Positions 1 to 18,413 of a stretch of 61,196 nt of DNA are shown here, one piece after another. Each line of letters begins with the position of its first letter. The first letter of the stretch is position 1. The notes below the pieces were generated by a model, which was not told where the DNA came from, did not search any database, and was given only the letters and a program-made list of their open reading frames with translations. The stretch is taken from positions 1-61,196 of the forward strand of contig JBBRFJ010000001.1 in NCBI GenBank assembly GCA_038224475.1, in the 5' to 3' direction. The DNA is from Burkholderiales bacterium (GTDB taxonomy: Bacteria > Pseudomonadota > Gammaproteobacteria > Burkholderiales > Usitatibacteraceae). A program made the position numbers and the translations under genes.

Positions 1-812
1 TCGTCGCCTGCTGACAGCGGACGATTGACGGCCTGCCACGCGGGTGGTGACATTTCAAAAGCGACGGCATATTCCAGTCCCAACTCCTCATATTCGTTGA
101 TCTTGCCTTCAAAGATATACAGCTCAAAAAGCAGCGACCAAAAACCTTGGCTGGCATTCAATGGCAGCCCGGTAGTCGCGTTGATCGAAGCTCTCAGGGC
201 AGTGGCAAATCCGTCAAACGCGTTGAACCAGACTGGAATCTTGGCGCGCCGGAGTCGCTGAAAAACAATCGCAAATAGCTCAGCTTCCTCGCATAAGATT
301 GTTTTTATTTTGGTGAAATCCACGCGGCAGCTGCCAATCTCTTTGGCGAACGATTCAAATTTATCAATCTCGCCCAATAGGGCACCATCAGAATCCGGCG
401 TCAACGTGAAGAAATCCTTGCGCTCACGCTTCTCTCTGCGGCGCGGATCTGCTGCATCGAGCGTATCGGTCCACACCGGCGGCGAACGTTCAAATTTGAC
501 CGAGTACAACATCGATAGCGCATCAAACTCGCGCCGATTGCCGGTCAGGTGGTAAAAATCAAACAGCATCAGCCAAGTGCGGATGCTATTTTTGCCATCC
601 GTTGTTTTCATGTAGTCTTTTAGTGTTTCTTGGGCCGCCTCCGCGTGGCCTGCCGCGTAAAGGATCGCCGCCTCATACAGCGGCGGGAAATTGGTCGCGT
701 CGGGCAAAATTTGTTCTGACGATGGATTTTGCAGCGCCGCGGCGGGCTTGGGCGCAGGAACGGCCGTCGGCTTTTGCGTCGAACCAGGTTTTCCTGAAAT
801 GGGAGTCGCCAT
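1..812 (-). CDS. hypothetical protein; N-terminal ~270 codons, gene runs off the window start
   Basis: Absent from the ORF track because it has no stop in the window. ATG at 812-810 is preceded by AAGGA, followed by an uninterrupted frame to position 1 (MATPISGKPGSTQKP...FEMSPPAWQAVNRPLSAGD). Composition is protein-like and the strand matches the upstream operon. Confidence 0.6.
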   Translation of the reverse strand, partial: MATPISGKPGSTQKPTAVPAPKPAAALQNPSSEQILPDATNFPPLYEAAILYAAGHAEAAQETLKDYMKTTDGKNSIRTWLMLFDFYHLTGNRREFDALSMLYSVKFERSPPVWTDTLDAADPRRREKRERKDFFTLTPDSDGALLGEIDKFESFAKEIGSCRVDFTKIKTILCEEAELFAIVFQRLRRAKIPVWFNAFDGFATALRASINATTGLPLNASQGFWSLLFELYIFEGKINEYEELGLEYAVAFEMSPPAWQAVNRPLSAGD

Positions 813-878
813 GCCTTTGTGATCCTTAAATGGGCGCTTTATATTCGCGTCGAAATAGCGCGCCTTGGTTGACGAATA

Positions 879-1499
879 TTAAAACTTTACAGATTCAGCA
901 TTGACGAGACGGAAAAACAGATACTGGTCGTTCACCAGCTCCAGCTTGCCGCTGACCACGATGGGTTCCCATTGATTGAATTCCACCGGTGTTTTAGCCA
1001 CGACCTCGACCATTGAGTCCGGTCCTTGCGACACGCAATACGGGCAGTGCGACGGCAGCGGCGAAATCAGAAAATGCTTTTGTTTGGCCCCAGTCGAAAG
1101 CGGTAGCACAAACCCATATAACTTTACCTCCTGATTATCCAGTTCTTTCAGTTGCGCACTGAATTCTGGCAGGATCGCTGGCGCTTTTTTGGTGATGCTT
1201 GCCTTGTTGTCCTTTACGGCGCTAACGTCCTTTGCACCTTTTACTTCTTTCGCTTCCACCAGCTTTACTTGCCGAAGCAGCTGCCACGGAACGGTGCCCG
1301 CAGGGAGCGGATCTTTGCCAATGTAGCTAAACAGTTGCTCATCAGCCAGCGGCACAGATGATGGTGCCGCCGGTAAAACCGCCTGCGCCAGCGTGGCAAC
1401 GAACAAGCTACTAAAAAGGCATAGCGACGTCATTACCATTGCGATGCTGATTTTAACGGACTTCGTTTTTTTCATGACTCGTTGCATAAGTTGTTTCAT
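879..1499 (-). CDS. DUF3299-like periplasmic protein with signal peptide
   Basis: Start trimmed to the ATG at 1499, preceded by GAGGA and 17 nt after the permease stop. Signal-like N-terminus MKKTKSVKISIAMVMTSLCLFSSLFVATLAQA. The C-terminal HCPYC motif is typical of DUF3299 proteins that partner ABC transporters. Confidence 0.7.
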   Translation of the reverse strand: MKQLMQRVMKKTKSVKISIAMVMTSLCLFSSLFVATLAQAVLPAAPSSVPLADEQLFSYIGKDPLPAGTVPWQLLRQVKLVEAKEVKGAKDVSAVKDNKASITKKAPAILPEFSAQLKELDNQEVKLYGFVLPLSTGAKQKHFLISPLPSHCPYCVSQGPDSMVEVVAKTPVEFNQWEPIVVSGKLELVNDQYLFFRLVNAESVKF

Positions 1500-1516
1500 G
1501 GAATCCTCATCTTCGG

Positions 1517-2713
1517 CTAACCGCCATTCAAGGTTTCGGACACCGCATTTCGATAAGCGCGCCATGCCGGAACGAGTGCCGCGAATATGGAAAGCACCAG
1601 CGCTGCGATGACTATCGCGATTTCTTCTTTAAAAAATGTCCAACCCGTCAAGTAAATGCGATGCGTTTTTTGAATTGCGGCACCCATCCATTCTGCACCC
1701 AAATGACCTAACACCAGCCCAAGTATAACGCCGAGCAAACCCAGTGCGAACCCTTGCAAGGCAACGGTAAAAAATACGGTCGTCGGCGTGGCTCCCAGTA
1801 GCCGAAGCAGCGCCAAATCTTCGCCCCGTTCATTCAATGTATTCATCAGGCCGATGAAAATGCCCAGCGCAGAACAGAGCATCATGATTGCAGCAAAAAC
1901 TTTCAGGGTTGACACGCCAATGCCCAATAGCGCGAACAGCCGCGACGTCTCCATCGCAGGCGACGCGGCCTGCATTGAAGTCGACGCGTTCACCATCCGT
2001 GGGAATGAGGCAGCGGCGAGCGGGTTTGAGTACTGAATGAGATAAGCCGTGATTTCTTTATCCGTGTCGGTTTGGTCGGCGTGCTCATGCTCATGAACCG
2101 CCCAGATACTTTCAACGCCCGTCAATATCAGTTTATCGGCAACCGTACCGGTCGACTTTAGTAAGCCGACCACAATATAAGGCTGGCTGGCATGGGTCTC
2201 GCCCCCTTCGGTCAGACCGTGCGAACCGGCAAAGCGTTGGCCAATTTTGAGGCCGGTTAATCGCGCCACTTCGCTACCCACTACGGCTTCCAGCGGCTTA
2301 GCCCACAGGCGCCCTTCGAGCAGTGTTGCGCCATAAAGATCAGCGTAGGTCGGCTCAGTGCCGACAATACGAAACGTCTTAAAGCTGTCGCCCAGCGCCA
2401 ATGGTATTGCCAGCTTTACCTGCCGCGCTGCGATGATCGGCGCGGCTTCGGCCAGAGGAACATTGCCGGTGGGAATATCCATTTGAAACACCGACGACAA
2501 AATAAGCTGCAGCGGACTTCCTTTCGCGCCGATCACCAAATCCACCCCGGCGGTGTCACGCTCCATTCGCTCTTCAGCCTGTGCCAACGTCAACATTAAC
2601 GCGATGATGGTGCCCACTCCGAGTCCCAACAGCAGCACATTCAGCAGCGTTTGCAATGGCCGTTGACGGAGATATGCCGATGCAAGCGTGAGCGCGATGG
2701 TGAAGGATTTCAT
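1517..2713 (-). CDS. ABC transporter permease, FtsX/MacB-like
   Basis: Start trimmed to MKSFTIALTLASAYLRQRP (ATG at 2713), 7 nt after the ATPase stop. It has an N-terminal TM helix, a large periplasmic domain and a C-terminal cluster of TM helices. Confidence 0.85.
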   Translation of the reverse strand: MKSFTIALTLASAYLRQRPLQTLLNVLLLGLGVGTIIALMLTLAQAEERMERDTAGVDLVIGAKGSPLQLILSSVFQMDIPTGNVPLAEAAPIIAARQVKLAIPLALGDSFKTFRIVGTEPTYADLYGATLLEGRLWAKPLEAVVGSEVARLTGLKIGQRFAGSHGLTEGGETHASQPYIVVGLLKSTGTVADKLILTGVESIWAVHEHEHADQTDTDKEITAYLIQYSNPLAAASFPRMVNASTSMQAASPAMETSRLFALLGIGVSTLKVFAAIMMLCSALGIFIGLMNTLNERGEDLALLRLLGATPTTVFFTVALQGFALGLLGVILGLVLGHLGAEWMGAAIQKTHRIYLTGWTFFKEEIAIVIAALVLSIFAALVPAWRAYRNAVSETLNGG

Positions 2714-2720
2714 GCGTATT

Positions 2721-3413
2721 TCACTTACTAGCCGCCAGTACATGAACCCGTGAAAATCGGTGCTTGATCCGCGCATCATGGGTTGCCACCACCAGCGTTG
2801 CGCCATGCTCATGCGCCTGCGCAAATAGCAAATCAATCGCTGCATCGCAATTTGCGTCGTCCAGCGCCGAGGTCGGTTCGTCCGCCAACACAATCGGCGG
2901 GCGGTTGAGCACCGCGCGTGCAATGGCCACACGCTGCGCTTCACCCTGAGAAAGTGCGCGCGGAAACTTCTGCGCCTTCTGTTCAATTCCCAGCGCGCGC
3001 AGCACCGCGCTAACCCGATTCAAATCCCGCGCCAGCCCGGCCAGGCGCTGCGTTAGCAGCAAATTATTTTCCACATTCAGCGCAGAAATAAGATGCAATC
3101 GTTGCATCACCAAGCCAATTTTCTGACAACGAAATTTATCTCGCTCACGGCCAGAAAGCGCATTTAGCATCGTGCCGTCAATCACTATGTTGCCGCTAAA
3201 TGGTAATGCCAGGCCCGACAGCAGATTGAGCAACGTGGTTTTGCCGGAGCCAGACGGACCGAGCAACAACGTGTGTTCGCCCTGCGCGATCGACAGGTGC
3301 GCGATGTTGACGACAGTCTGCCGGCCGGCCGGGGTGTCGTATCCGGCCAAGAGGTTTTCAATGGCGATCAGCACGTTTGCGGTTTTTCCGGCAACACGCA
3401 AACTAAGCGGCAA
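2721..3413 (-). CDS. ABC transporter ATP-binding protein
   Basis: Walker A GPSGSGKTT, signature LSQGEAQRVAIARA, Walker B IVLADEPTSALD. Confidence 0.9.
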   Translation of the reverse strand: MPLSLRVAGKTANVLIAIENLLAGYDTPAGRQTVVNIAHLSIAQGEHTLLLGPSGSGKTTLLNLLSGLALPFSGNIVIDGTMLNALSGRERDKFRCQKIGLVMQRLHLISALNVENNLLLTQRLAGLARDLNRVSAVLRALGIEQKAQKFPRALSQGEAQRVAIARAVLNRPPIVLADEPTSALDDANCDAAIDLLFAQAHEHGATLVVATHDARIKHRFSRVHVLAASK

Positions 3414-4464
3414 CGATTAATGCCGGCGTTGTTTCCGCTTTTTCTACGACGCAATACGCCAAGCCTTCTGTAAAAATCCGCTTCGGCAAATTGCGGCCGA
3501 TGAAAACCATCTTCGATTCGCGTGCTTCGCCCGGTAGCCACGCCTTGCCAGGGCTGCCGCCCATCAGCATATGCACACCTTGAAAAATCATGCGGTTGTC
3601 CTGACCGTCGATACTGAGCACACCTTTGTAGCGCAACATATCTGCGCCGTAGGTTTGGATCAGCAGCGATAGGAATGCCTCGATCTTCTCCATATCCAAT
3701 GGCCGCGTGTCTTTCCAAATAAACGATTGCACATCGTCCGAATGAGTGTGGTGATCTTCAGCTAAAAATTCAGGTTCAATCTCTAATATCGAATTCAAAT
3801 TGAAGCCGCGAATATCCAAAATTTCTTTAATATCGGTTTCGCCAAAATGCACCTTGTGGAACGTCGCGCGCGGATTCATGCGCTTGAGCCGGTCTATCAA
3901 TTGTTTGGTCTCTTCTTCGGCCACGAGGTCGGTTTTCGACAGCAGCACACGGTCTGCAAAGCCAATCTGGGCGCGGGCCTCCGAGCTATCAGTGAGTTGC
4001 TGGGAGCCATGTTTTGCATCCACCACGGTGATCACCGCATCGAGCACGTATTGATCGTGAATCGCTTCGTCCATAAAAAACGTTTGGGCGACTGGGCCGG
4101 GTTCGGCCATGCCGGTGGTCTCGATAATCACCCGATCAAACTTAAGCGTGCCTGCTTTTCGTTTGGCCGCGAGTTCGCTGAGAATTCGCACCAAGTCGCC
4201 GCGCACGGTGCAGCAGATACAGCCGTTGTTCATCTCAACAATCTGCTCATCTTTTTCTTGCACCAGAATTTCGTTGTCGATACCCTCTTCACCAAATTCA
4301 TTTTCGATCACCGCGATTTTCTCGCCGTGTCGCTCGGTCAGAATCCGCTTCAGGAGCGTGGTTTTTCCGCTCCCTAAATATCCGGTGAGGATCGTCGCGG
4401 GGATGAGCTCGATCTTCGATTTTTGTGCTTTGATTTCAGCTTTGGCTTGTGATTTGGCAGACAT
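3403..4464 (-). CDS. COG0523/CobW-family G3E GTPase (putative zinc metallochaperone)
   Basis: P-loop GYLGSGKTTLL, CICC metal motif (NGCICCTVRGD) and a His-rich stretch AEDHHTHSDD. It lies in the zur cluster. Confidence 0.9.
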   Translation of the reverse strand: MSAKSQAKAEIKAQKSKIELIPATILTGYLGSGKTTLLKRILTERHGEKIAVIENEFGEEGIDNEILVQEKDEQIVEMNNGCICCTVRGDLVRILSELAAKRKAGTLKFDRVIIETTGMAEPGPVAQTFFMDEAIHDQYVLDAVITVVDAKHGSQQLTDSSEARAQIGFADRVLLSKTDLVAEEETKQLIDRLKRMNPRATFHKVHFGETDIKEILDIRGFNLNSILEIEPEFLAEDHHTHSDDVQSFIWKDTRPLDMEKIEAFLSLLIQTYGADMLRYKGVLSIDGQDNRMIFQGVHMLMGGSPGKAWLPGEARESKMVFIGRNLPKRIFTEGLAYCVVEKAETTPALIVAA

Positions 4465-4503
4465 GCGATTGCTCCGTGTGTTTGAAACGTGGTGTGGTAT
4501 TTG

Positions 4504-4645
4504 AGGAAGCTCTGATTAAGTCGATTTCGTTGCCAACCGTTGTTGCGGGACTAAAAATATCTCCTTGCAGATCAAACAATGCTGCGTCGATATTTTTAGT
4601 CCTACGCCTAGTCTGGCTTAGAACTAGACTTAATCAGAGCTTCCT
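4504..4645. repeat. 142-bp nested inverted-repeat element (19-bp outer arms, 14-bp inner arms)
   Basis: AGGAAGCTCTGATTAAGTC at 4504-4522 is the exact reverse complement of 4627-4645. GGACTAAAAATATC at 4548-4561 is the exact reverse complement of 4589-4602. Confidence 0.7.
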
Positions 4646-4779
4646 TAATTTGGATATTTAAACAGATGGTCGCTACGCCGCGAAGTTCAAGATGTTGGCT
4701 CAAGGTGTTGGACTAGGGTGGTGATTCGGCGATGGTATCTAGTTTGATCGGGATATTTCTGGTTCAGCCCGTCTATTCG

Positions 4780-5874
4780 TCAGCCTGATACCTCGACCGC
4801 ATCATCCACAAACGACTTGAGTGTGTCGCGAATAAAGTTTTCATCCAAATCGCGGGTGATAAAAACGATCCGTGTTCGATGGTCGCTGTCAGGCCATGCC
4901 GGTAATCGCGCCGCCGGATAAATCGTGTGTTGGACGGCGTGAATCGCGCGCGGTGCGCTTTCGCCCGCCACGTTAATGATGCCTTTGATGCGCAGTATTT
5001 GTTCACCGCGCAGCGAGGTTATCGTCTCCAATGCATCCACCAAGCTTTGCCATTTTATCGGCGCTTCAAAAATCATTGCGAAGGCACTAATGCGCTGATC
5101 GTGACGCGTTTGTTTGGGGTCCGGGTGGTTGACCGCGCCGTTAGGCAAATAGCGTTGCGACAAAGTGCTTACATTCGCAGGCGACGACGAAAGCGGGCGA
5201 TAGGCCTCAGCGCGCAACCACTTTTGTACATCCGGCGTCTTGCTGCCCGCTTGATATAAGCCGGTGTCGAACAGAACGACGGGATCAATATCGCCGGATA
5301 CGACCTCAAAAATAGTCGCGCCGGGATTGAGCGCAGCAATACGCGTGCGCAATTTGCCGGTGACGTTCGGTGCCACTAAATCCGTTTTCGTGATCACGAG
5401 TCGATCCGCTACGGCGGCTTGCTTTAGCGCTTCTTCATGATCATCAAGCTGTCGCATGCCATGGGCGGCATCCACGCAAACAACGATGCCCGATAACGAA
5501 TAGCGCGCGGCAACTAATGGCATTTCGATCAAGGTGTGCATAATCGGCGCCGGATCCGCGAGGCCGGTGGTCTCGATCACCACGCGTTTAAACATCGGCA
5601 CTTCTCCATTCGCGCGCTTGAAATACAAATCGCGCAACGCCGTCACCATATCGCCTGCGACAGAACAGCAAATACAGCCGTTCGACATGATGATCATATT
5701 TTCGCTGGCTTCGCGTACCAGCAAATGATCAATCGATACCGCACCAAATTCATTGATCAGCACCGCGGTCTCGCTCATCGATGGATGTTTGAGCATGCGG
5801 TTGAGCAGGGTGGTTTTACCACTGCCCAAAAAACCGGTGAGCAAGGTGACCGGCGTGATGATCGACGCAGACAT
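4780..5874 (-). CDS. COG0523/CobW-family G3E GTPase, second paralog
   Basis: P-loop GFLGSGKTTLL and motif NGCICCSVAGD. It starts 5 nt after the zur stop. Confidence 0.9.
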   Translation of the reverse strand: MSASIITPVTLLTGFLGSGKTTLLNRMLKHPSMSETAVLINEFGAVSIDHLLVREASENMIIMSNGCICCSVAGDMVTALRDLYFKRANGEVPMFKRVVIETTGLADPAPIMHTLIEMPLVAARYSLSGIVVCVDAAHGMRQLDDHEEALKQAAVADRLVITKTDLVAPNVTGKLRTRIAALNPGATIFEVVSGDIDPVVLFDTGLYQAGSKTPDVQKWLRAEAYRPLSSSPANVSTLSQRYLPNGAVNHPDPKQTRHDQRISAFAMIFEAPIKWQSLVDALETITSLRGEQILRIKGIINVAGESAPRAIHAVQHTIYPAARLPAWPDSDHRTRIVFITRDLDENFIRDTLKSFVDDAVEVSG

Positions 5875-5879
5875 GAGAA

Positions 5880-6350
5880 TTATTTACATTCCGCACAGAG
5901 GCCGCGAATTTTTAAATCGACCTCGGTGGTGCTGAACCCGGTCGGTAGTTTCACATTCATTTTCGGTTGCACTTTGTCCAGACAAAACGTTTGCCCGCAG
6001 GTGTTGCAGGTGAAGTGGGCATGCGCATGAGATGGCGCGTGATGCGCGTTGGTTTTACCCGCGGCTTGTGCGCCAGCCTGGGCATTCAGCATAAACCGCC
6101 ACACGCGATCATCTCCCGCAATGCGATGCGCAATACCCACGCCGACCAGCCAATCCAAAACGCGATAAACCGTTACCCGATCAATCGTGTGACGCTTTGC
6201 AATCATTGCCGCGACATCAAGATGCGACATCGCATGATCGCTGCTCAAAAGCGTTGCCAGCACCGCCACACGTGGCTCGGTCACGCGTTCGCCGGTCGCG
6301 CGCAACGCGGTCTGAGCCTGAGGAATTTTTTCCAGATATGCGAGTTTCAT
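5880..6350 (-). CDS. zur: Fur-family transcriptional regulator, Zur-like
   Basis: Winged-helix N-terminus, HAHAHFTCNTCG plus a C-terminal CAECK Cys pair (structural Zn site), and COG0523 genes as neighbours. Confidence 0.8.
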   Translation of the reverse strand: MKLAYLEKIPQAQTALRATGERVTEPRVAVLATLLSSDHAMSHLDVAAMIAKRHTIDRVTVYRVLDWLVGVGIAHRIAGDDRVWRFMLNAQAGAQAAGKTNAHHAPSHAHAHFTCNTCGQTFCLDKVQPKMNVKLPTGFSTTEVDLKIRGLCAECK

Positions 6351-6366
6351 GGGGATTTAGAGTGAG

Positions 6367-6381
6367 ACATTGGACCAATGT
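6367..6381. promoter_or_regulatory. perfect 7-1-7 palindrome ACATTGG-A-CCAATGT upstream of zur (candidate Fur-family operator)
   Basis: Exact palindrome 17-31 nt upstream of the zur ATG, with the 7-1-7 geometry typical of Fur-family boxes. The sequence does not match any Zur consensus I can recall. Confidence 0.3.
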
Positions 6382-6521
6382 GATCGGTAAGCAAGCTCAT
6401 TTTACCGCCGCGAGTGCCGCAGATGCAATTGAGTCGCAAAAAGGGTTTTTCACGCTTTAAACACTAGCACTGGCGAGCCGTTCAAGCTATTTCTATGCCG
6501 AACAGCGCTTCTGCATTGGTT

Positions 6522-6923
6522 CTACGTTGCCAGATGGTGGAGCGAGAAGGCCGCTTTAGGAAAAAAGTCCCGACTCGCTATTGACAGGGTTTGCGATGCA
6601 CGCGGACGGCGCTCGTGCAAATGCACAAAGCGGGTGGAGTGCTGGCGCGTTGCACGGCTAATTTGCGTGCAAGATTGCCGGTTTGACAATTCCGGCTTGC
6701 TCAACGCCGCGCTTGAAATTGCGCTGATACATTTGGTCGCACAAATGATGCCGTCTGCGCACACCCAGGCGTAAACACCGGATTCGCGAATGTAAAAACG
6801 AATCCAGTAAACAAGGGCCTCTTCGGTGCGAAAGCTGAATTGCAAATAGCGAATCCGCTCGCGCACTGAGTCGAGCACTTTTTTGATTGCAGCGAGGGGA
6901 GTGGGTTGGTAGACTAAGCCTTC
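6522..6923 (-). pseudogene. intI: integron integrase relic (frameshifted, roughly 230 codons deleted internally)
   Basis: Frame A reads [43 protein letters not shown], resembling the IntI1 N-terminus [34 protein letters not shown]. Frame B reads [35 protein letters not shown], resembling IntI1 [34 protein letters not shown]. The tail returns to frame A in degraded form. Confidence 0.65.
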
Positions 6924-7105
6924 TTAGGTGCAACCGCCTCTTCGGAGCAGGACTATGAACGCTGGAAAACGTGAAAGTGTTTTTGCCGTATATAAATACG
7001 GCGTTATTCGCATAGGGCTTGATGGCATGCGTTTTTTTCGCGTTTCTTCTGGAATGATAGGGAGGCATAGCGGAATAGTGGGAGACTCTGTGCTGCCTAC
7101 ATTTA

Positions 7106-7112
7106 GTTAAAT
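7106..7112 (+). other. GTTAAAT core at the candidate attI/first-cassette junction
   Basis: It matches GTTRRRY, lies 13 nt before the first cassette ORF, and sits between the intI 5' end and the cassettes. Confidence 0.35.
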
Positions 7113-7118
7113 TGCTAT

Positions 7119-7457
7119 ATGGTTTATCTCGACTGTTCCGGTGTTCGCTTTGGTTCTCAACTTGACGAGAAGCATTTATTTTATTGGGCAGCTGAAATTA
7201 CATGTTTTGTTCGTTGGGAACAAGACATTCTTGTAGTGAAGTCGAGTCGCATTTCTGAAGAGGCATTGCGTGATCTACTAGCCCTGTTTTGGCGGTACAA
7301 CATCCCGATGAAACAGTTGGCACAGTTTCGGAACACGGCCAATGAGGATTGGTTTGCAGCGCCCATCATGTACTGGCACAAAATGGTGTTCGCCTCGCAA
7401 CTTAGCCTGGCGCCCAACGCGGACGGCCCTGAGGGTCGCCGGGTAGCTCCACGTTAA
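7119..7457 (+). CDS. hypothetical protein (cassette 1)
   Basis: 112-aa ORF with no recognisable motif. Its last ~20 codons overlap the attC-like site. Confidence 0.5.
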
Positions 7458-7459
7458 AG
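7395..7459 (+). repeat. attC-like site 1
   Basis: GCAAC at 7397-7401. Stem CCTGGCGCCC (7406-7415) pairs with GGGTCGCCGGG (7433-7443) with one bulge. GTTAAAG core at 7453-7459. Confidence 0.45.
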
Positions 7460-7470
7460 CTCAGACGCCT

Positions 7471-7905
7471 ATGAAAATTCGTCGTCGATTCTGCATTTTC
7501 ATTGTGTTGCTTGCGTTTGTATCGAACATCCATGGACAGCCTTCGGCAGAGTCTAAAGCGGAGAGAAAAATGCAATTTCCCCAAGATGTAAACGGTGACG
7601 TATTCCGACGCATGCAAAAGTCAGGGCTTGATTTTTCAAAATCTCACGATGTTGAGTTTTTCGCGGTCTTTCGCACCGAATCCGAGGCTGATGTCGTAGC
7701 CAAACAGTACTTGGCTGACCACAAATCCGGGAACCGACTGGTCAAAATCGATACGCGACCTGCGAAAAAGGGTGGAATGGAACTGCTCCTTGTCAAGAAT
7801 ATCTCCTTAACTTACGAAGGTGTTACTGCTTTTGAGCGGCGGCTTCTGGAACGGGTGTCGGCACACGACGGCTATTTGGATGGTTGGGGAGTTCTCCAAG
7901 AGTGA
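7471..7905 (+). CDS. RraB-like domain protein with N-terminal signal peptide (cassette 2)
   Basis: Signal-like MKIRRRFCIFIVLLAFVSNIHGQ. The body (DGDVFRRMQKSGLDFSKSHDVEFFAVF...YLDGWGV) resembles the RraB (regulator of RNase E activity B) fold motif ending in YDGWG. Confidence 0.6.
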   Translation: MKIRRRFCIFIVLLAFVSNIHGQPSAESKAERKMQFPQDVNGDVFRRMQKSGLDFSKSHDVEFFAVFRTESEADVVAKQYLADHKSGNRLVKIDTRPAKKGGMELLLVKNISLTYEGVTAFERRLLERVSAHDGYLDGWGVLQE

Positions 7906-7907
7906 AA

Positions 7908-7972
7908 GCTCTAACGCTTCAGTCAACACGGGCGTGCCAACAGCGGCGCGCCCGTTATTTTGGTCGTTGGGC
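7908..7972 (+). repeat. attC-like site 2
   Basis: CTAAC at 7911-7915 and AGTCAAC at 7921-7927. Stem GGGCGTGCC (7930-7938), loop AACAGC, stem GGCGCGCCC (7945-7953). GTTGGGC core at 7966-7972. Confidence 0.55.
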
Positions 7973-7975
7973 ATC

Positions 7976-8401
7976 ATGACGGATGAACACTGTGTGCAAT
8001 GGGATGGAGTGACTGGCATTGTTAGCCCCTGCGCCGATATCTCATTCGTCTACGACCAGCCAGATGAAGTTACGGTCACAATGCATTTCTCATGTGTGAA
8101 AGGTCTTCCCTCTCGTGATCTTGTGTTGAGTTTTAGCGGCGCAATTTCCGCGCGCTGGGAAAGTGAATCATTTGGGCTCAATACACTTCCGGATACGCTG
8201 CCAAAATGTGGGGGCATTGGTTGGGAATCTTGGACATTTCCCTTACTGAAGATCGAAAACTCTTCTTGGCTCAAATTACATGTCGACTGCCATCCTGATG
8301 CTGCAGAAGGTCGAGTGCATTTCGCACTCGTCACAATGAATGACCTTTTTCAGGTTCTGGCTCTACCAACTGTAATCACTAAGTGGATAGACGTAGATTG
8401 A
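7976..8401 (+). CDS. hypothetical protein (cassette 3)
   Basis: Trimmed to the ATG at 7976, 4 nt after the GTTGGGC core. The track ORF start at 7820 would read through attC site 2 and overlap the previous gene. 141 aa, MTDEHCVQWDGV... Confidence 0.55.
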   Translation: MTDEHCVQWDGVTGIVSPCADISFVYDQPDEVTVTMHFSCVKGLPSRDLVLSFSGAISARWESESFGLNTLPDTLPKCGGIGWESWTFPLLKIENSSWLKLHVDCHPDAAEGRVHFALVTMNDLFQVLALPTVITKWIDVD

Positions 8402-8433
8402 TGCTGCAACATTGCGGTCAAAATGGTTCGCTA

Positions 8434-8485
8434 AGCTAACTTGGACGCGCCAACAGCGGCGCGTCCTTTACATTAATCGTTAGAT
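8434..8485 (+). repeat. attC-like site 3
   Basis: AGCTAAC at 8434-8440. Perfect 9-bp stem GGACGCGCC (8443-8451), loop AACAGC, stem GGCGCGTCC (8458-8466). GTTAGAT core at 8479-8485. Confidence 0.55.
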
Positions 8486-8560
8486 TGCTCAATTATGGGT
8501 TGAGTACTTCATTTCACAGGAAACCACGTTGATATTGACGCTCTCGCCAATATTGCCCCA

Positions 8561-8944
8561 GTGCAGGCAGCTACGATCTTCAGAAGAGGCGAGCCACGGC
8601 CTAGTCGACACAACAGTAGGGTCTGCGTAACGTCAGGCTTGAATTTTTTCGTGAGCCGCGCCGACTTCGATGACTTTGAACAACAGCAACAAGATGCGAT
8701 TGCGTTTCTTACTGTCCAGCAAGATGACTTTAAGAAATTGCGTCAATTTGAAGGGGTGACGAGCGTAAGTTTGGATTTTGGCATCGCCATGAGGAATGTA
8801 ATTTCCCAATCGGATCAGTTTCACCCTGAACTCATTTCCCTAATGGCGCCTCTTGGCCTTGCACTTGTGCTGATCCATTACCCATTGGGAAAAAAGAACA
8901 ATGAAGTAAAGCAGTCGCGGCGTGCGCTGCGAAAACCAATCTAA
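8561..8944 (+). CDS. hypothetical protein (cassette 4), start uncertain (GTG)
   Basis: 127-aa ORF. The first canonical start after the in-frame stop at 8501 is the GTG at 8561. No recognised motif. Confidence 0.4.
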   Translation: MQAATIFRRGEPRPSRHNSRVCVTSGLNFFVSRADFDDFEQQQQDAIAFLTVQQDDFKKLRQFEGVTSVSLDFGIAMRNVISQSDQFHPELISLMAPLGLALVLIHYPLGKKNNEVKQSRRALRKPI

Positions 8945-9006
8945 CACGTTCGTCAAAGGCGCTCCCTTTGGTCGCTGGATGGCGCAAAAGCGCGCCACCT
9001 TCAACC
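8939..9006 (+). repeat. degenerate attC-like site 4 (no GTTRRRY core)
   Basis: TCTAAC at 8940-8945. Hairpin CAAAGG-CGCTC-CCTTTG. Palindrome TGGCGC (8980-8985)-AAAAGC-GCGCCA (8992-8997). No downstream GTT core was found. Confidence 0.35.
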
Positions 9007-9549
9007 TCCAAAATAAATAGAATAGGTAGGGTAAGACGCTTTTATTTCCCTGTATTTCGACATAACCAAAAATTCAAACACAAGTACACACGACCCTTTC
9101 AAGCCGCTTTAGTCCCAATCGCCCCGCCAATAGGTCACTTTCACTTTCCGTTTCAAACAACCAAGGCACGCCTTCCTCGATCTGTCGTCTCCTGTCGCGA
9201 CATGCAATGCCCTAAGAGATTTTTCCATCAACAGATGGTGGTGCGACAAGGTGGATCGGCTCGGCAACCCGTAGCGCAGCTGAGATTACTTGGTTGCCGA
9301 TACCGCCGGCGCGATCAAATGAAGGGTTTAAGTCGTTACGTTCTCACGCAGGGCGTCGGCACGCCTTCCAGCCAATCGCTATATCGCGCCATCTAGTGCG
9401 AGATGGATAACGACCATTCGACTAAAACTATCAAGCGCCAATATGCGATATTGCAAGTCTGTGTCAGAAGGTGCACGCACAAGCGCTAGACAAAGACTAA
9501 CATTCGGCATCGACGAAAACGATCGATCAAGGCGCAAAGAGGAATGATC

Positions 9550-10866
9550 ATGGAAGCCAAAGTAGACCGCTCCGAAAGCAATAAGAATCTGCATACCCAC
9601 CAAATAATGCGCCGCACAGTGGCCCTCGTGCTGGCGGGCGGGCGAGGCTCTCGCCTGAAGCAATTGACCAATGGTCGCGCCAAGCCGGCGGTGTATTTCG
9701 GTGGCAAATTTCGCATCATTGATTTCGCGCTTTCGAATTGCCTTAATTCCGGCATCCGGCGGATGGGGGTGCTAACGCAATACAAGTCGCATTCATTGCT
9801 GCGTCACCTGCAGCGCGGCTGGAGTTTCCTCCGCGCGGAGCTAAACGAGATGGTGGATTTATTGCCCGCGCAGCAGCGCGTTGGCGATGATCATTGGTAT
9901 CGCGGCACCGCTGATGCGGTGTTTCAGAACATGGACATCATCCGTTCCAGCAGACCCGAGTACATCATTATTTTGGCGGGCGACCATATTTACAAAATGG
10001 ATTACTCGATCATGATTGAAGATCACGTCGAGAGCGGCGCTGGTTGCACTGTCGGGTGTATCGAAGTCGAGCGCGCCGAGGCCAGCGGCTTCGGCGTGAT
10101 GGCGATCGGCGGAAATAGAAAAATAACCGCTTTCGTTGAAAAACCTGCCGATCCGCCACCGATGCCGGGAAATCCGACCAAATCGCTCGCGAGCATGGGT
10201 ATTTATGTGTTTGACGCCGAGTACCTGTACCGCCTACTCGACGACGACCTCGCCAATCCCGCGTCTTCGCACGACTTTGGTAAAGACGTCATCCCGCGCT
10301 GCGTGGCCGAGGGTAAAGCGATGGCGCATCCATTCAGTATGAGCTGCGTTTCGCGCGTGAAGACCACCGTCCCTTATTGGCGTGACGTCGGCACCATCGA
10401 CGCCTTTTGGTCTGCCAACCTTGATCTGGCGTCGACCATCCCGGAGCTCGATATTTACGACCCCGATTGGCCGATTTGGACTTATCAGCGCCAACTCCCA
10501 CCGGCCAAGTTCGTGCCCGATACCAACGGCGCGTCGGGCGTGACGGTGAATACACTGATATCGGGTGGCTGCATTGTTTCCGGCTCATACGTCGCGCAGT
10601 CGGTGCTTTTTTCGGAGGTGCGCGTGCATTCTTTCTGCCATATCGAGCAGGCGGTACTGCTGCCGAACGTCACGGTGAATCGCAACTGTCGTTTGCGCCG
10701 CGTGGTGATTGACCGCAACTGCGAACTGCCGGAAGGGCTGGTCGTCGGCGAAGATGCAGAACTCGACGCGCAGCGCTTTGAGCGCACTGAAAACGGTGTG
10801 GTGCTGATTACCCGCGACATGTTGTCGAAGCTGTCTACAGCTTCGGCGGCGAGTTCGACCGCGTGA
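9550..10866 (+). CDS. glgC: glucose-1-phosphate adenylyltransferase
   Basis: [13 protein letters not shown] and [16 protein letters not shown] motifs. The ATG at 9550 has better spacing from AGAGGA than the ATG at 9544. Confidence 0.93.
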
Positions 10867-12314
10867 GAGTACTGCAAGTCAGTGCCGAGGTATTCCCGCT
10901 GCTCAAGACGGGCGGTCTGGCAGACATTACCGGCGCACTGCCGGCCGCACTCACCAAAGCCGGCTGTGACGTTCGTCTGTTGTTGCCCGGCTTCGCGTCG
11001 ATCTTGCACGACCTACACGACGCCGTCGTCTGCGCGACAACCCAGGCACCTTGGGGGGAAACGGTCGTGCTGCGCAAGGGTCGCTTGGCGAGCCTCGGCG
11101 TCGTCGGCTACGTCATTGACGCCCCTGATCTGTACTTGCGCCCCGGCGGCCCCTATGACGACGCGGATCGTCAACCCTACGCTGATAACCATCGCCGCTT
11201 TGGGTTGCTCGGTTGGATGGCCGGTCAGTTGGCTGAAGGCATCGATGCGCAATGGCAACCGCAGGTGGCACATTGCCACGACTGGCATGCGGGTTTGGCG
11301 CCTGCATACTTGGCATTGTCGAGAGAGCGCCAAGCGACGCGCGTGGCGAGCTTGTTTACGGTACACAATCTGGCCTACCAAGGCGTGTTTGCGGCGCTAT
11401 GTTTTGCGGAGCTGGGCTTGCCGCAATCTGCTTTTTCGATGGACGGGCTGGAGTACTACGGCCAAGTCTCGTTCATGAAGGCGGGGCTCGTCTATGCAGA
11501 CCGCATCACGACTGTGAGCCCCACCTATGCGCGCGAGATTCAGACGCCAGAGCAAGGTTGCGGACTCGACGGTCTGTTGCGCGAGCGCAGCGACGTGCTC
11601 TCCGGCATCCTGAATGCTGTCGATGAAACAGTGTGGAATCCGGCCACCGACAAATTAATTCCGCACCCATACGATGCCGCCGACAGCGCCGGAAAAGCGC
11701 GCTGCAAGGCCGCGCTTCAAGCAGAAATGGGTCTCACCACCAACGCGCGCGCGCCGTTGTTTGGTGTGGTGAGCCGCCTGACGGAACAAAAGGGGCTGCA
11801 TCTTGTGACCGCAGCCATCGATGAACTGGTTTCGCTCGGCGGCCAGTTGGTGGTGCTTGGCAGCGGCGACAGTGGCTTGGAAAGCGCGCTTCGCGTTCAC
11901 GCTGAACAACACCCGCAATCCGTCGCGGTGCGTCTCGGGTACGACGAGGCGTTGGCGCATCGCATTTTTGCGGCTACCGACATCACCCTGGTCCCATCGC
12001 GTTTCGAACCATGTGGGTTGACGCAGATGTACGGCCTCAAATACGGCAGCCTGCCGCTGGTTCACCGCGTCGGTGGGCTGGCGGATACGGTGGTGGATTG
12101 CACCGTTGAAAATCTCGCCAATAGCAGCGCCAACGGTTTTGTGTTCGACGTTTTTTCTGACGCCGAATTTGCACGCGCCATGCGTCGCGCTGTTGCCCTG
12201 TACGCGATTGAAAAAGATTGGGCGGCCGTGACAAAACGCGCGCGGGCTCAATTATTCGGCTGGGATGCCGGGGCAGCGCAGTATCTCGCGTTGTATCGGC
12301 AGATCACGGCTTAG
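10863..12314 (+). CDS. glgA: glycogen synthase
   Basis: N-terminal [17 protein letters not shown] (KTGGL motif). The GTG start overlaps the glgC stop (GTGA). Confidence 0.93.
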
Positions 12315-12490
12315 ACAAACCTTAGACAAACTTGAGAAAATGGTCAAACACGCCATTTGGCGGGTCATTTCAGCACTTTTTGCTCGACAACGCCCGCTGG
12401 CTCTAGAGTTTGGCTGTGATCCATTTCGCACCAAATCCCGGACTGACTGAGGCGTTCAGCGTACCCGAGCGAATGGCTGCTCCTGCCGCC

Positions 12491-14011
12491 CTACACAGGC
12501 AGCCGCATCAACCCAATCGGTGCACGACCGCTGGCCGCAGTCACCAATCCAAGTACCCGTGTTGTCTCGCCGTTGAGCATCGACCACTCAAGCCGCCACT
12601 GCCAGTTGCCAGCTGGCGTACCCGGTACGTTCAGCCGGTGGTGGCTATCAAGTCCCAGAATATCCTGCATCGGAAAAATGGCTGTGGCGGCGACCGAGTT
12701 ACACGCGGCGCGAATCATTGCCCAGTGGATGTCGTTGGCGGTTGCCGCCAAGTAGCTTCCGGCAAAGGCACGCTCGCGCTCACTGGTGTTGTCCCACCAG
12801 CCGCGTGTGGTGTCGTTGTCATGCGTACCTGAATAGGCCACGGTATTGATGGCGTAATTGTGCGGCAAATATTCATGGGTGCCGTCGCCGCTGAACGCGA
12901 ACTGCAGAATGCGCATACCCGGCAGGTTGAATCGGGTTCGGAGTTCGACCACATCGGGCGTGATCAACCCAAGATCCTCAGCGACGATCGGAAGTTTGCC
13001 GAGTGCGTTTTCAATCGCGTTGAAAAATGCGATGCCCGGCGCATCCACCCAGCGCCCCTGCGTCGCATCGTCACAACTCGCATCAATTTCATAGTACGCC
13101 GCGAATGCGCGAAAGTGATCGATGCGCACCAAATCCGACGTACTCAGCGTTCTTTTTAGACGTGCGATCCACCACGCAAAACCATCAGCCGCCATCCGAT
13201 CCCAGCGATAAAGCGGATTACCCCAGCGCTGGCCGGTTGCCGACATGGCATCCGGTGGTACACCGGCCACCACCGTCGGCTGAAACGCGTCATCCAGGAA
13301 GAACGCATCCGGTCGCGCCCAACAGTCAGCGCTGTCGTGCGCAATAAAAATAGGAACGTCCCCCATGATCGAGACACCGCGCTCGTTGGCATAGGCTTTC
13401 AAATCGCGCAACTGCGCGTCAAAGCACCATTGCACAAAGCGCCAAAAGCCGATCTCGTCGGCGTACTGTTCTCGCGCCGCTGCAAGCGCGGCCGGGTGGC
13501 GGTGCGCTAATGGCGCAGCCCAACTCCACCAAGCGTGCGCTTGGTGTTTGGTGCGCAGCGCCATATAGAGCGTGTAGTCATCCAGCCAACTGGCCTCGGC
13601 AGTGCACCATCTGTCAAACGCGTCGCGTTCTGCCGCCGTCGCCGATGCGAAGAAGCCTGCTGCCGCACGCCGTAGTGCCGCCTCACGCCACGGCAGCACC
13701 TGTGCGTAATCAACCGTCGACGCATTAAACCCGCCGGAGGGCAACGTAGGTTCATCAAGCCATCCTTGAGTAACCAATGGTTCTAGCGCCACCAGCCACG
13801 GATTGCCGGCAAATGCCGATACGCCTTGATAGGGCGAGTTGCCCCCGCCGATCGGCGTGGTGGGTAGCAATTGCCAAATCGACTGTCCGGTCGCCTGCAG
13901 CCAGTCAATAAAACGGTAGGCGTCAGGACCAAAGTCGCCGCTGCCATGAGGCCCGGGAAGTGAGGTGATATGGAGGAGCACTCCAGCGCTGCGAGATTGA
14001 AGTACGGTCAT
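12491..14011 (-). CDS. malQ: 4-alpha-glucanotransferase (amylomaltase)
   Basis: GH77 hallmarks RSAGVLLHITSLPG, VRIDHFRAF and PMQD. 4-nt overlap with glgX. Confidence 0.9.
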   Translation of the reverse strand: MTVLQSRSAGVLLHITSLPGPHGSGDFGPDAYRFIDWLQATGQSIWQLLPTTPIGGGNSPYQGVSAFAGNPWLVALEPLVTQGWLDEPTLPSGGFNASTVDYAQVLPWREAALRRAAAGFFASATAAERDAFDRWCTAEASWLDDYTLYMALRTKHQAHAWWSWAAPLAHRHPAALAAAREQYADEIGFWRFVQWCFDAQLRDLKAYANERGVSIMGDVPIFIAHDSADCWARPDAFFLDDAFQPTVVAGVPPDAMSATGQRWGNPLYRWDRMAADGFAWWIARLKRTLSTSDLVRIDHFRAFAAYYEIDASCDDATQGRWVDAPGIAFFNAIENALGKLPIVAEDLGLITPDVVELRTRFNLPGMRILQFAFSGDGTHEYLPHNYAINTVAYSGTHDNDTTRGWWDNTSERERAFAGSYLAATANDIHWAMIRAACNSVAATAIFPMQDILGLDSHHRLNVPGTPAGNWQWRLEWSMLNGETTRVLGLVTAASGRAPIGLMRLPV

Positions 14012-16125
14012 GTTTCAAGCGTTGTAGAAGCGAATGAGGAGCGCAGCACCACCAACGAGTGTGAGGCGACGCTTAGCGTTGCGGTGTGTGCGTCGCCGGT
14101 TGCAATGGTGCTGCTGGTATCGAGAACAACCTGCCATGCCGAGCCCGGAATCGAAAACTCGACCTCGACCTTCTCGGGATTGAGGCAAATCATCAATTGC
14201 TCGGCAACCTCGCCTGCTGAAGGAGGGCAAAGCCTGCACGCGAACGCGTGGTTACTCTGGTCGTGCCAGTCGTGCGTTTGCATATCGATGCCTGCCGGTG
14301 TGAGCCAGCTGAAAAGGGCGGTGCTGCCGGTCGCGTGCGTGGCGCTCAGCCATTCATCCTGTCGAAACTGGGGCGACGCGCGGCGCTGGGCGATGACGCT
14401 GGCGACAAATTTGGTTAAGTCATGATCGGCATCGGACCAATTGAGCCACCCGGTGGCGTTGTCCTGGCAATAGGCGTTGTTGTTGCCGCCTTGGCTATTG
14501 CCGATTTCGTCACCTGCGCACAGCATGGGTGTGCCTTGCGAAAGCAACAACGTCGCCAACATCGCACGTTGCAGCCGCTGCCGCACGCCAGCGATCTGTG
14601 GATCCGCAGTCGGCCCGTCCGCGCCAAAGTTTGCGCACAGTTCGTTGTCGCGGCCGTCGCGGTTGTCCTCGCCATTCGCGGTATTGTTCTTACGGCTGTA
14701 GCTCAGCATATCAACCAGCGTGAAGCCATCGTGCGCACACACAAAATTGACCGACGCCGAAGGCCGCCGTTTGCCATGGTGGAACACGTCGCTCGACCCG
14801 GTGATACGCCGCGCCAGCTCGCCGCGCGAAATGCCCGACCGCAACCAGAAGCCGCGAATCGCGTCGCGGTACTTGTCGTTCCATTCGAGGAAGCGGCCCG
14901 GAAAGCGCCCCAGTTGATAGCCGTCGTAACCTGCATCCCATGGCTCAGCAATCAGGCGGGCTCTCGACAAAATCGGATCCTGTTGCAAGGCGACAAAGAA
15001 CGCCGCACACGGGTCGAAGCCGTGCTGTCGGCGACCCAGTACCGGTGCCAGATCAAACCGAAAACCATCAACGCCCATCTCGTGCACCCAGTAACGCAAT
15101 GAGTCCAGCACAAACTGGGTTACTCGCGGATGCTCAACGTTGAGTGTGTTTCCACAACCGGTGAGGTTCTCGGCACGACTGTGATCGTCTGCAACGTGTC
15201 GATACCACACCGCATTGTCGAGCCCGCGAAAGCTAATCGTCGGGCCGAACTCGCTGCCTTCCGGGGTGTGGTTGTAGACCACGTCGAGCACGACTTCAAT
15301 CCCGCTCTCATGCAGCGTGTGCACCATCTCGCGAAACTCTTCGATGACCTCGCTAGGGTCCGCCCCGCTGCGCGCCAGGCGCGGGTCTGGCGCAAAAAAA
15401 CCCAGCGTGTTGTAGCCCCAGTAGTTGCGCATGCCGCGCTCAACCAAACCCGACTCGTCCACACAATATTGGACCGGCAACAGCGACAGCGTGGTGACGC
15501 CCAGCGCTTGAAAGTGTGCGATCGCCGCCGGGTGCGCGAGGGCTGCGAAACGTCCACGCAGCGCCTCAGGAATACCCGGGTGCGTCATCGAAAAGCCCTT
15601 GACGTGGACCTCGTAGAGAACCACTGCAGCCGCGGCATGGCGGGGAGCGTTAAACCAACCGGGCGCTGCTGACGGCGGCGCGGCAACGCGAGCTTTCAAG
15701 GCCGACGCGCCGTTGTCCCGATGGTCGAACGATCGTGGACCGTCCGGGTGTCCCAATTCAAATCCGTGATGTTCCGCACGCCAGCCAAACTGCCCGACGA
15801 TCTCACGCGCCCAAGGGTCGAGCAACACTTTGTTCGGGTTAAAGCGATGGCCGGACGCCGGCTTGTAGAGGCCGTGCGCACGCAGCCCATAGACAAGTCC
15901 CTGCCCGAGTCCCGCGAGGAACCCATGGAACACGCCATCGATGGGGCCATGCAGTCCGTAGCGCCGCAGCTCGCGAACGCCGCTGGTGTCGTAGACACAC
16001 AACTCAATCATCGCTGCGTGTTCGGAAAACACCGCAAAATTGACGCCGCCGTCGCGAACCAACGACCCCATCGGTTCACAACGTCCTTCGGCGATTTGGC
16101 TGGGTAAGGTGGCGCGTTCACTCAT
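14008..16125 (-). CDS. glgX: glycogen debranching enzyme
   Basis: GH13 motifs VVLDVVYNHT, DGFRFDLA, EPWD and CAHDGFTL. Confidence 0.92.
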   Translation of the reverse strand: MSERATLPSQIAEGRCEPMGSLVRDGGVNFAVFSEHAAMIELCVYDTSGVRELRRYGLHGPIDGVFHGFLAGLGQGLVYGLRAHGLYKPASGHRFNPNKVLLDPWAREIVGQFGWRAEHHGFELGHPDGPRSFDHRDNGASALKARVAAPPSAAPGWFNAPRHAAAAVVLYEVHVKGFSMTHPGIPEALRGRFAALAHPAAIAHFQALGVTTLSLLPVQYCVDESGLVERGMRNYWGYNTLGFFAPDPRLARSGADPSEVIEEFREMVHTLHESGIEVVLDVVYNHTPEGSEFGPTISFRGLDNAVWYRHVADDHSRAENLTGCGNTLNVEHPRVTQFVLDSLRYWVHEMGVDGFRFDLAPVLGRRQHGFDPCAAFFVALQQDPILSRARLIAEPWDAGYDGYQLGRFPGRFLEWNDKYRDAIRGFWLRSGISRGELARRITGSSDVFHHGKRRPSASVNFVCAHDGFTLVDMLSYSRKNNTANGEDNRDGRDNELCANFGADGPTADPQIAGVRQRLQRAMLATLLLSQGTPMLCAGDEIGNSQGGNNNAYCQDNATGWLNWSDADHDLTKFVASVIAQRRASPQFRQDEWLSATHATGSTALFSWLTPAGIDMQTHDWHDQSNHAFACRLCPPSAGEVAEQLMICLNPEKVEVEFSIPGSAWQVVLDTSSTIATGDAHTATLSVASHSLVVLRSSFASTTLET

Positions 16126-16143
16126 AGTTGGTTAATGAGGCAG

Positions 16144-18339: not shown

Positions 18340-18413
18340 AGCGAGTCACCCTTCACTGATTTCTCTGCGCTATGTTCAAGCAGGCAACGTCAATGCTTCG
18401 CTCCCATTCATTC

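Follow-up and report, generated by a model that had tools for sequence, protein, structure and literature searches.

The first 61,196 nucleotides of contig JBBRFJ010000001.1 from a Burkholderiales bacterium (assembly GCA_038224475.1; this whole stretch is referred to here as the window) contain, at positions 7106 to 9006, four small open reading frames (ORFs) on the same strand, each associated with an imperfect inverted repeat. The question that this locus raises is whether these ORFs are the gene cassettes of an integron and, if so, in what state that integron is. Our answer is that the region 6664-9005 is very probably a decayed chromosomal integron. In the classification used by IntegronFinder it counts as a CALIN, i.e. 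a cluster formed by two or more attC sites on one strand without an integron integrase nearby (Cury et al. 2016, PMC4889954), accompanied by an adjacent pseudogene of the integrase gene, intI. Four attC sites on one strand lie within 1.6 kb and the 61 kb window contains no intact intI. The locus lacks the intact integrase gene of a complete integron and shows, as judged from its sequence, an attI site beside the intI remnant. It is a new instance of an element kind that was already known, and it leaves the understanding of integrons unchanged.

The four ORFs are located on the plus strand at 7119-7457, 7471-7905, 7976-8401 and 8561-8944. One attC site, also on the plus strand, is found at the 3' end of each, either overlapping the stop codon or trailing it closely. 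The sites were scored with two covariance models made from attC sites of other loci: R1, based on an alignment (A1) of 14 non-window sites and run over the whole window with the filters off, and R2, based on an alignment (A3) of 42 non-window sites. Each model gave exactly four matches in the window with E<0.01, all of them on the plus strand and at the ends of the four ORFs. The best match was attC3 (8404-8485), with 54.4 bits in R1 (E 1.1e-13) and 43.7 bits in R2 (3.2e-09), followed by attC2 (7909-7972), with 50.7 bits (1.5e-12) and 50.4 bits (4.7e-11), attC4 (8939-9018 in R1 and a local match at 8970-9011 in R2), with 27.0 bits (2.8e-05) and 30.4 bits (1.4e-05), and attC1 (7400-7459), with 19.9 bits (0.004) and 28.6 bits (4.2e-05). 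The next best match elsewhere in the window had E-values of 0.83 and 0.21, respectively. The secondary structure assumed by the models is well reflected in the alignments: 90% of the cells of A1 are paired, versus 28.6-46.4% when the partners are slid by 1-3 columns, and its L-box pairs covary (CG 9, UA 3 and GC 2 for one pair; AU 8, CG 5 and GC 1 for the other). In A3, an alignment fitted to its model, 19 of the 22 pairs show changes on both sides. An Rfam search of positions 6000-10000 with E up to 10 returned no attC family and only two noise matches.

Both the R'' and the R' cores are present in attC2 and attC3. The 64-nt attC2 consists of R'' CTCTAAC (7909-7915), the spacer GCTTCA, L'' GT[C]AAC, the hairpin ACGGGCGTGCC-AACAGC-GGCGCGCCCGT, L' TTATT, the spacer TTGGTC and R' GTTGGGC. 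The 82-nt attC3, of a longer type, consists of R'' CTGCAAC (8404-8410), the spacer ATTGCG, L'' GGT[C]AAA, a 19-nt insert, the hairpin GGACGCGCC-AACAGC-GGCGCGTCC, L' TTTACA, the spacer TTAATC and R' GTTAGAT. According to the model alignments, the L'' box has an unpaired C in site 2 (AGT[C]AA) and in site 3 (GGT[C]AAA), and the spacers measure 5-6 nt. Most members of the family have a second extrahelical base (GGG[A]CGCGCC); site 2 lacks it, and in site 3 it is paired. The two sites share a 44-nt direct repeat (77% identity, 513 nt spacing) and an identical loop. The other two sites are less regular. attC1 (60 nt, 7400-7459) is a divergent member of the short type with R'' ACTTAGC and R' GTTAAAG; the invariant AAC of its R'' box is changed to AGC at 7405, while its homologue in locus L059 keeps ACTTAAC. 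attC4 (8939-9005, about 67 nt) is of the long type and truncated: R'' ATCTAAC, ACGTTC, L'' GTCAAAG, the insert GCGCTCCCTTTGGTCGC, the hairpin TGGCGC-AAAAGC-GCGCCA (8980-8997) and a partial L' TTCAACC are followed by neither spacer nor R' core. The R1 alignment puts the R' of this site on AAAUAAAU. The intact attC4 homologue in the metagenome contig L054 has ...CCTTTTACCTTGATCGTTAGAG at its end; the two sequences cease to be homologous at about position 9005 of the window, where L054 goes on with TTGATCGTTAGAG and the window has CCAAAATAAATAG. From this break we conclude that attC4 has lost its spacer and R' core and that the end of the array is truncated, as had been suspected from the sequence alone.

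Further agreement comes from the circular form of the cassettes, in which R' is G plus the first six bases of the same cassette. As read from the sequence, the R'' box of attC4 (ATCTAAC) is a 7/7 complement of the circular R' of cassette 4 (G+TTAGAT), and that of attC2 (CTCTAAC) matches the complement of the circular R' of cassette 2 (G+TTAAAG) at 6/7 positions. Two other placements were considered and rejected. One was a short form of site 4 (8939-8981) in which GCTGGAT would be a mutated R'; it was discarded because CTCCCTTYGGTCGC-GGG is a conserved inner segment of the long type and the L054 homologue continues to GTTAGAG, and GCCCAAC (7411-7417) was discarded as the R'' box of site 1 in favor of ACTTAGC (7400-7406), on the basis of the model alignments and the L059 homologue.

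An earlier description of the region, made from the letters alone (the sequence-only reading), had located its motifs accurately: GTTAAAT at 7106-7112, which precedes the ATG at 7119 by 13 nt, GTTAAAG at 7453, GTTGGGC at 7966 and GTTAGAT at 8479, as well as the stems GGGCGTGCC/AACAGC/GGCGCGCCC at 7930-7953 and GGACGCGCC/AACAGC/GGCGCGTCC at 8443-8466 and the looser hairpin at 8980-8997. The anatomy that it derived from them needs revision. Its repeats of 50-65 bp are in fact sites of 60, 64 and 82 nt plus the truncated one of about 67 nt. The TAAC or CAAC boxes that it saw ahead of the palindromes do exist, but they are not R'' cores, since GTCAAC is the L'' box of site 2 and GCTAAC is part of the insert of site 3. 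The 3' asymmetry of about 10 extra nucleotides ascribed to site 3 vanishes once R'' is placed at CTGCAAC, 8404-8410.

The integron integrase (IntI) recombines the folded bottom strand of the attC site of a circular cassette with attI at G|TT, so that each cassette starts with TTRRRY and ends with its attC site plus G. Homology with other loci breaks at precisely such points. Between cassette 1 (7107-7453, 347 bp) and locus L059, DNA homology spans CGTTAAAT to CCACGTTA, with the cores as its limits on either side. Between cassette 4 (8480-9005) and L054, it extends with 89% mean column identity from CGTTAGAT (8478), which is the R' core of the site before it, to about 9005, and its start confirms the downstream boundary of cassette 3 (7967-8479, 513 bp) at 8479/8480. 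On the platform side, positions 6780-7110 show 66% identity with locus L011 through the 5' end of intI, the promoter region and attI as far as ...AGTTA and are unrelated beyond it. Since this homology ends at the GTT core, the attI crossover is placed at G|TT 7106, the same point at which homology to the cassette 1 homologue of L059 begins. The boundaries of cassette 2 (7454-7966, 513 bp) were set from the R' cores of attC1 and attC2. Taken with the R1 and R2 matches, the breaks at G|TT on cassettes 1 and 4 support the proposal of the sequence-only reading that attC sites bound the cassettes, and the switch of both the L011 and the L059 homologies at 7106 bears out the attI-side core that it had placed there.

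What remains of the integrase gene lies on the minus strand at 6664-6884, where a tblastn search with the full IntI of locus L032 identified two fragments. The first corresponds to IntI residues 7-38 (6884-6789) and the second to residues 239-274 (6771-6664). About 200 codons are deleted between them, and the catalytic C-terminus is missing or out of frame. The joined fragments match integron-integrase models only (NF011946, E 1.4e-21; TIGR02249, E 8.7e-12), with 45 bits against a curated cutoff of 265 and 77 bits against one of 435; the reference IntI of L032 reaches 426.7 bits with TIGR02249 (cutoff 265). With the N-termini of intI in L011 and L043 the remnant shares 69-71% identity; those two genes run on normally past residue 36 and are found about 500-750 bp ahead of the first attC site of the same family. 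The integrase gene that had been supposed to flank the array is therefore intI-derived, but it survives only as this two-fragment remnant. The only other tyrosine recombinase in the window is a XerC/XerD-like gene at 23921-24847 on the minus strand; it shares about 30% identity with IntI in the catalytic domain and does not belong to the integron integrases.

In the promoter region of intI, a degenerate LexA box, CCGTATATAAATACGG (6986-7001), aligns with the perfect box CTGTATATAAATACAG of L011 (about 335-350) and is mutated in both half-sites relative to it; the consensus is CTGTatatatatACAG (Cambray et al. 2011, PMC3108266). Positions 2 and 15, where the two changes lie, are partners in the palindrome, which is thereby preserved even though the consensus is lost. 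The motif CTGT-N8-ACAG has zero occurrences in the 61 kb. The attI region (7051-7112, plus strand) contains the repeats GGAATGATAGGGAG (7051-7064) and GGAATAGTGGGAG (7072-7084) and the core G|TTAAAT (7106-7112), and by analogy with attI1 the two direct repeats could be IntI-binding repeats.

We then asked how far this type of attC site extends beyond the window. When one mismatch is allowed, the palindrome's 16-mer core is found at just two positions of the 61,196 bases, 7934 and 8447. A scan with the 21-mer RCGYGCCAACAGCGGCGCGYC over one genome per species (185,579 species) yielded 49 loci, each in a separate genome and with one match per genome. Full attC anatomy is shown by about 16 of the 49. 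Another 30 or so lie in G+C-rich coding DNA and were rejected as attC sites, as they look like chance matches and cover only positions 41-58 of the model. The attC-type loci belong mostly to Burkholderiales or to metagenome-assembled genomes (MAGs) of Betaproteobacteria, with the addition of one Desulfocapsaceae and one Thermoanaerobaculia MAG. Their common layout is R'' (RYYYAAC), an unpaired spacer of 5-6 nt, L'' with an extrahelical base, a terminal hairpin rich in G+C, in many cases GCGCC-AACAGC-GGCGC, and then L', a second spacer and R' (GTTRRRY). Locus L045 is an example, reading GCCTAAC-ACGTC-GCT[C]AAG-(insert)-GGG[A]CGCGCC-AACAGC-GGCGCGCCC-CTTAGC-TGATC-GTTAGGC. The short type measures about 63 nt and the long type, with a 19-nt insert after L'', about 81 nt, and the same hairpin is found in both. 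With R1, same-strand arrays were detected in L046 (at least 12 sites), L021 (9), L040 (about 9), L004 (4) and L039 (3), and an array of at least 8 family sites is present in L058 (Roseateles). Members of the family lie beside intI in L011, L043, L032 and L036. This attC family is widespread, mainly in arrays of Burkholderiales.

Pairwise comparison of the four sites within the window gives identities of only 49-60%. Their closest relatives outside are more similar: attC1 is 87% identical to a site in L059, attC3 81% to one in L011, attC4 78% to one in L054 and attC2 66% to one in L026. The similarity of attC3 (79-81%) is to the first attC site on the intI side of L011, L026 and L043. Because each site is nearer to a foreign site than to its siblings, the array draws on a shared cassette pool and is no homogeneous sedentary array. 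The terminal hairpin is the part of attC that is usually regarded as free to vary, and the conservation of exactly this hairpin across attC subtypes and phyla is the only mildly unusual point of the locus. Recent common ancestry within an exchanged cassette pool is the most likely cause. It is rather improbable that it reflects a sequence-specific role, such as contact with a host factor or the integrase, or that it is the mark of a process by which cassettes are created.

The 21-mer also occurs with conserved flanks that are not of the attC type. One such pair is L006 (2494-2514) and L042 (530-550), from a Casimicrobiaceae genome and a beta-proteobacterium; a second pair, both from Acidimicrobiia, is L028 (3228-3248) and L038 (4883-4903), with a longer CGGGG...CCCCG stem. 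These pairs may represent a different conserved hairpin element.

Several observations weigh against the identification of an integron here and have to be set beside this evidence. In minimum-free-energy folds of the single sites, computed for both strands, only the central hairpin is robust (sites 2 and 3) and the R boxes pair weakly; the bottom-strand z-scores are -1.7 for site 2, -2.8 for site 3, +0.2 for site 1 and -2.8 for site 4. Because the models were seeded by way of the palindrome, and this by itself contributes about 22-24 bits, the scores of sites 2 and 3 are partly circular; moreover, the covariance-model E-values are rough because their calibration was shortened. A sigma-70 scan of 6780-7110 for Pc, the promoter that would read into the array, passed zero promoters, and the sequence TTGCAG-17 nt-TAGACT seen by eye near 6890-6920 (TTGCAA-17-TAGACT at the corresponding place in L011) is a weak match. 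Weak R-box pairing is, however, what is expected of cassettes read in an array context, and it is not positive evidence for attC either. Sites 1 and 4 do not have the exact palindrome, yet they reach E-values as low as about 1e-5. In spite of the same folds, which show little besides the central hairpin, and of the G+C-rich stems and T-rich tails of sites 2 and 3, which were flagged by a terminator scan, there is hardly any chance that rho-independent terminators, or a REP-like repeat of intergenic DNA independent of an integron, account for the hairpins behind the genes. The dispersal through the genome that the sequence-only reading had named as the sign of a REP element is not observed, as the palindrome is absent from the other 58 kb of the window and is never present twice in any of the 49 carrier genomes; nor does its other refuting condition, an attC covariance model without matches, hold for the family models R1 and R2, which match all four sites. 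The hairpin is framed by conserved AAC...GTT cores and an L box that covaries, members of the family lie in arrays beside intI, homology breaks at G|TT, and the five terminators found in the region are not above the mean of 3.6 in shuffled sequence.

Two other explanations accept an integron and differ as to its kind or state. The sequence-only reading had taken near-identical attC sites as the signature of a sedentary chromosomal integron, whose sites would have been made or homogenized in this host. The 44-nt stretch of 77% identity and the common loop of sites 2 and 3 speak for this, as does the chromosomal location; but the overall identity of 49-60%, the closer foreign relative of each site and the number of cassettes, only four, make it very improbable, and the exact 21-mer is found in attC sites of at least three phyla, the palindrome being common to Burkholderiales, Desulfocapsaceae and Thermoanaerobaculia. 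Somewhat less remote, though still unlikely, is an array that is not frozen, in which cassettes 1-3 are reshuffled in trans by an intact IntI encoded elsewhere in the genome or on a mobile integron, so that the locus would serve as a living store of cassettes. This would be in line with the complete R'', L'', L' and R' boxes and high model scores of attC2 and attC3, and with the greater similarity of each site to sites of other genomes, which points to cassettes from a shared, exchanged pool. About half of the CALINs reside in replicons that encode IntI and may be mobilized in trans (Cury et al., PMC4889954). On the other hand, the 61 kb include no second intI, the only other tyrosine recombinase being the XerC/D-like one with its 30% or so of identity, and marks of decay have accumulated: attC1 has AGC for AAC, attC4 is without its R', and the gene of cassette 4 contains a nonsense codon.

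We therefore prefer the decayed, frozen integron, for which the following history can be proposed. The platform would have consisted of a divergently transcribed intI with a LexA box in its promoter and of an attI site made up of the core G|TTAAAT at 7106 and a pair of direct repeats. From the established mechanism of integrons, the four promoterless cassettes would have been inserted in turn at attI as circles, and from integron biology in general they would have been read from a promoter in the intI-attI region. Loss of intI would then have frozen the array. Erosion has since removed about 200 codons and the catalytic end of intI, mutated the LexA box, changed AAC to AGC in attC1, deleted the R' core of attC4 and introduced a stop at codon 3 of the gene in cassette 4. 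The array would now be a frozen set of small accessory genes.

As for the contents of the cassettes, ORFs 1 to 3 are intact. The ORF of cassette 1 (7119-7457) encodes a protein of 112 amino acids without a Pfam or NCBIfam match. It belongs to a family of at least 198 homologues of 92-112 amino acids, about 60-88% identical and mostly from Burkholderiales; the genera include Roseateles, Variovorax, Massilia, Ralstonia, Janthinobacterium and Acidovorax. In all three contexts that were examined, L058 (6001-6324), L059 (486-824) and L060, the homologue lies between attC sites. The ORF of cassette 2 (7471-7905, plus strand) encodes 144 amino acids with an RraB-family domain (PF06877, E 3.6e-18), and this RraB-like protein was found elsewhere only on a Logan contig identical to the window. 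The ORF of cassette 3 (7976-8401, plus strand) encodes 141 amino acids without a family match. Cassettes 2 and 3 are equally long (513 bp) and their genes are unrelated; the equal length is probably a coincidence.

The gene of cassette 4 (8495-8944, plus strand) encodes a product that is weakly DUF4279-like (E 0.084, residues 8-124). Its third codon is a nonsense TGA at 8501-8503 (ATG GGT TGA, 8495-8503) where all homologues, which begin with MGCVLHFTG..., have Cys (TGC); at this position L054 reads ATGGGTTGC and the window ATGGGTTGA. The closest homologue, with 80% amino acid identity, is that of L054, where it lies within an array that has four attC sites of the family. Homologues at a greater distance (49% identity) were seen in L051 (5090-5539) and L056 (1990-2439), with no detectable attC site; there they sit between osmC and aminotransferase genes near rplM-rpsI. 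The family thus exists outside arrays too, possibly as a domesticated cassette. A tblastn comparison of the four cassette proteins with loci L001-L049 gave zero homologues.

The location of the element is chromosomal, with zinc-homeostasis genes on one side and glycogen genes on the other, and no resistance genes and no transposon or plasmid context were found in the 61 kb window. The G+C content of the array is 0.49, versus 0.53 in the left flank (1-6350) and 0.595 in the right flank (9544-20000); a fossil integron explains this low-GC island between the zinc and glycogen genes. When the flanking zur, cobW and glg proteins were compared with the related loci by tblastn, no common synteny was detected. 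Directly to the left of the intI remnant is a probable zinc-homeostasis cluster (2721-6350). Its genes encode an ABC-type ATPase (2721-3413), two paralogous GTPases of the CobW family (3403-4464 and 4780-5874) and, with its start adjoining the remnant, a regulator of the Fur family (5880-6350). To the right, about 540 bp (9006-9543, GC 0.49) separate the truncated attC4 from glgC. Neither an attC-like match nor a recognizable gene was found in 9019-9543 with R1, R2 and Pfam, and the sole long ORF of this segment (8968-9396) has no Pfam match; the segment could be the remains of a decayed cassette or native intergenic DNA. A Logan contig of 2,504 nt (L050, run SRR19962015) is identical to 7035-9538; one of its ends lies just within attI and the other 6 nt short of glgC. 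The assembly is thus interrupted on either side of the array, which may be due to variation around it in the population.

Mobile integrons of the class 1 type have a divergent intI, an attI site with repeats and a GTT core, and promoterless cassettes with RYYYAAC/GTTRRRY attC sites, formerly called 59-base elements. The array in the window shows the same architecture and comparably heterogeneous attC sites, with an unpaired spacer, an L box that has an extrahelical base, and variable length. However, it is devoid of resistance genes and of a transposon or plasmid context, its integrase is dead, and its attC family has a G+C-rich terminal hairpin and an optional 19-nt insert. In the sedentary integrons of the Vibrio type (VCR arrays), cassettes number from tens to hundreds and their attC sites are highly similar. 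The window resembles them in its chromosomal location and its cassettes of unknown function, and differs in having only four cassettes, whose sites are 49-60% identical.

A closer parallel is found in the survey of Cambray et al. (2011, PMC3108266), in which 43-46% of intI genes were predicted to be inactive and loss of the LexA box correlated with inactivation, in soil and freshwater Proteobacteria. The window shares with those integrons an inactivated intI with a degenerate LexA box and a betaproteobacterial type of context, the closest platforms being those of Burkholderiales and Betaproteobacteria MAGs. Here, though, intI has suffered a large internal deletion and a truncation and not point mutations or frameshifts alone, and the LexA half-sites are changed at paired positions that keep the palindrome. 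With the CALINs the locus shares four same-strand attC sites within 2 kb, the absence of an intact intI nearby, proteins of unknown function unrelated to resistance, and a typical size, as 83% of CALINs have fewer than 6 attC sites (Cury et al. 2016, PMC4889954). It differs from them in that a recognizable intI pseudogene and the attI and promoter region are still attached. Pseudogenes of intI were reported near only 15 of 279 CALINs (about 5%), and Cury et al. proposed loss of intI as a route by which CALINs originate (PMC4889954). The present locus is a clear example of a CALIN arising in this way, and it also agrees with the association reported for soil and freshwater lineages, in which the LexA box is lost and the integrase inactivated. 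Its main value lies in correct annotation, since about 2.3 kb would otherwise be read as four hypothetical genes and some odd hairpins, and the gene of cassette 1 brings to notice an uncharacterized family of at least 198 small proteins for which there is no Pfam model.

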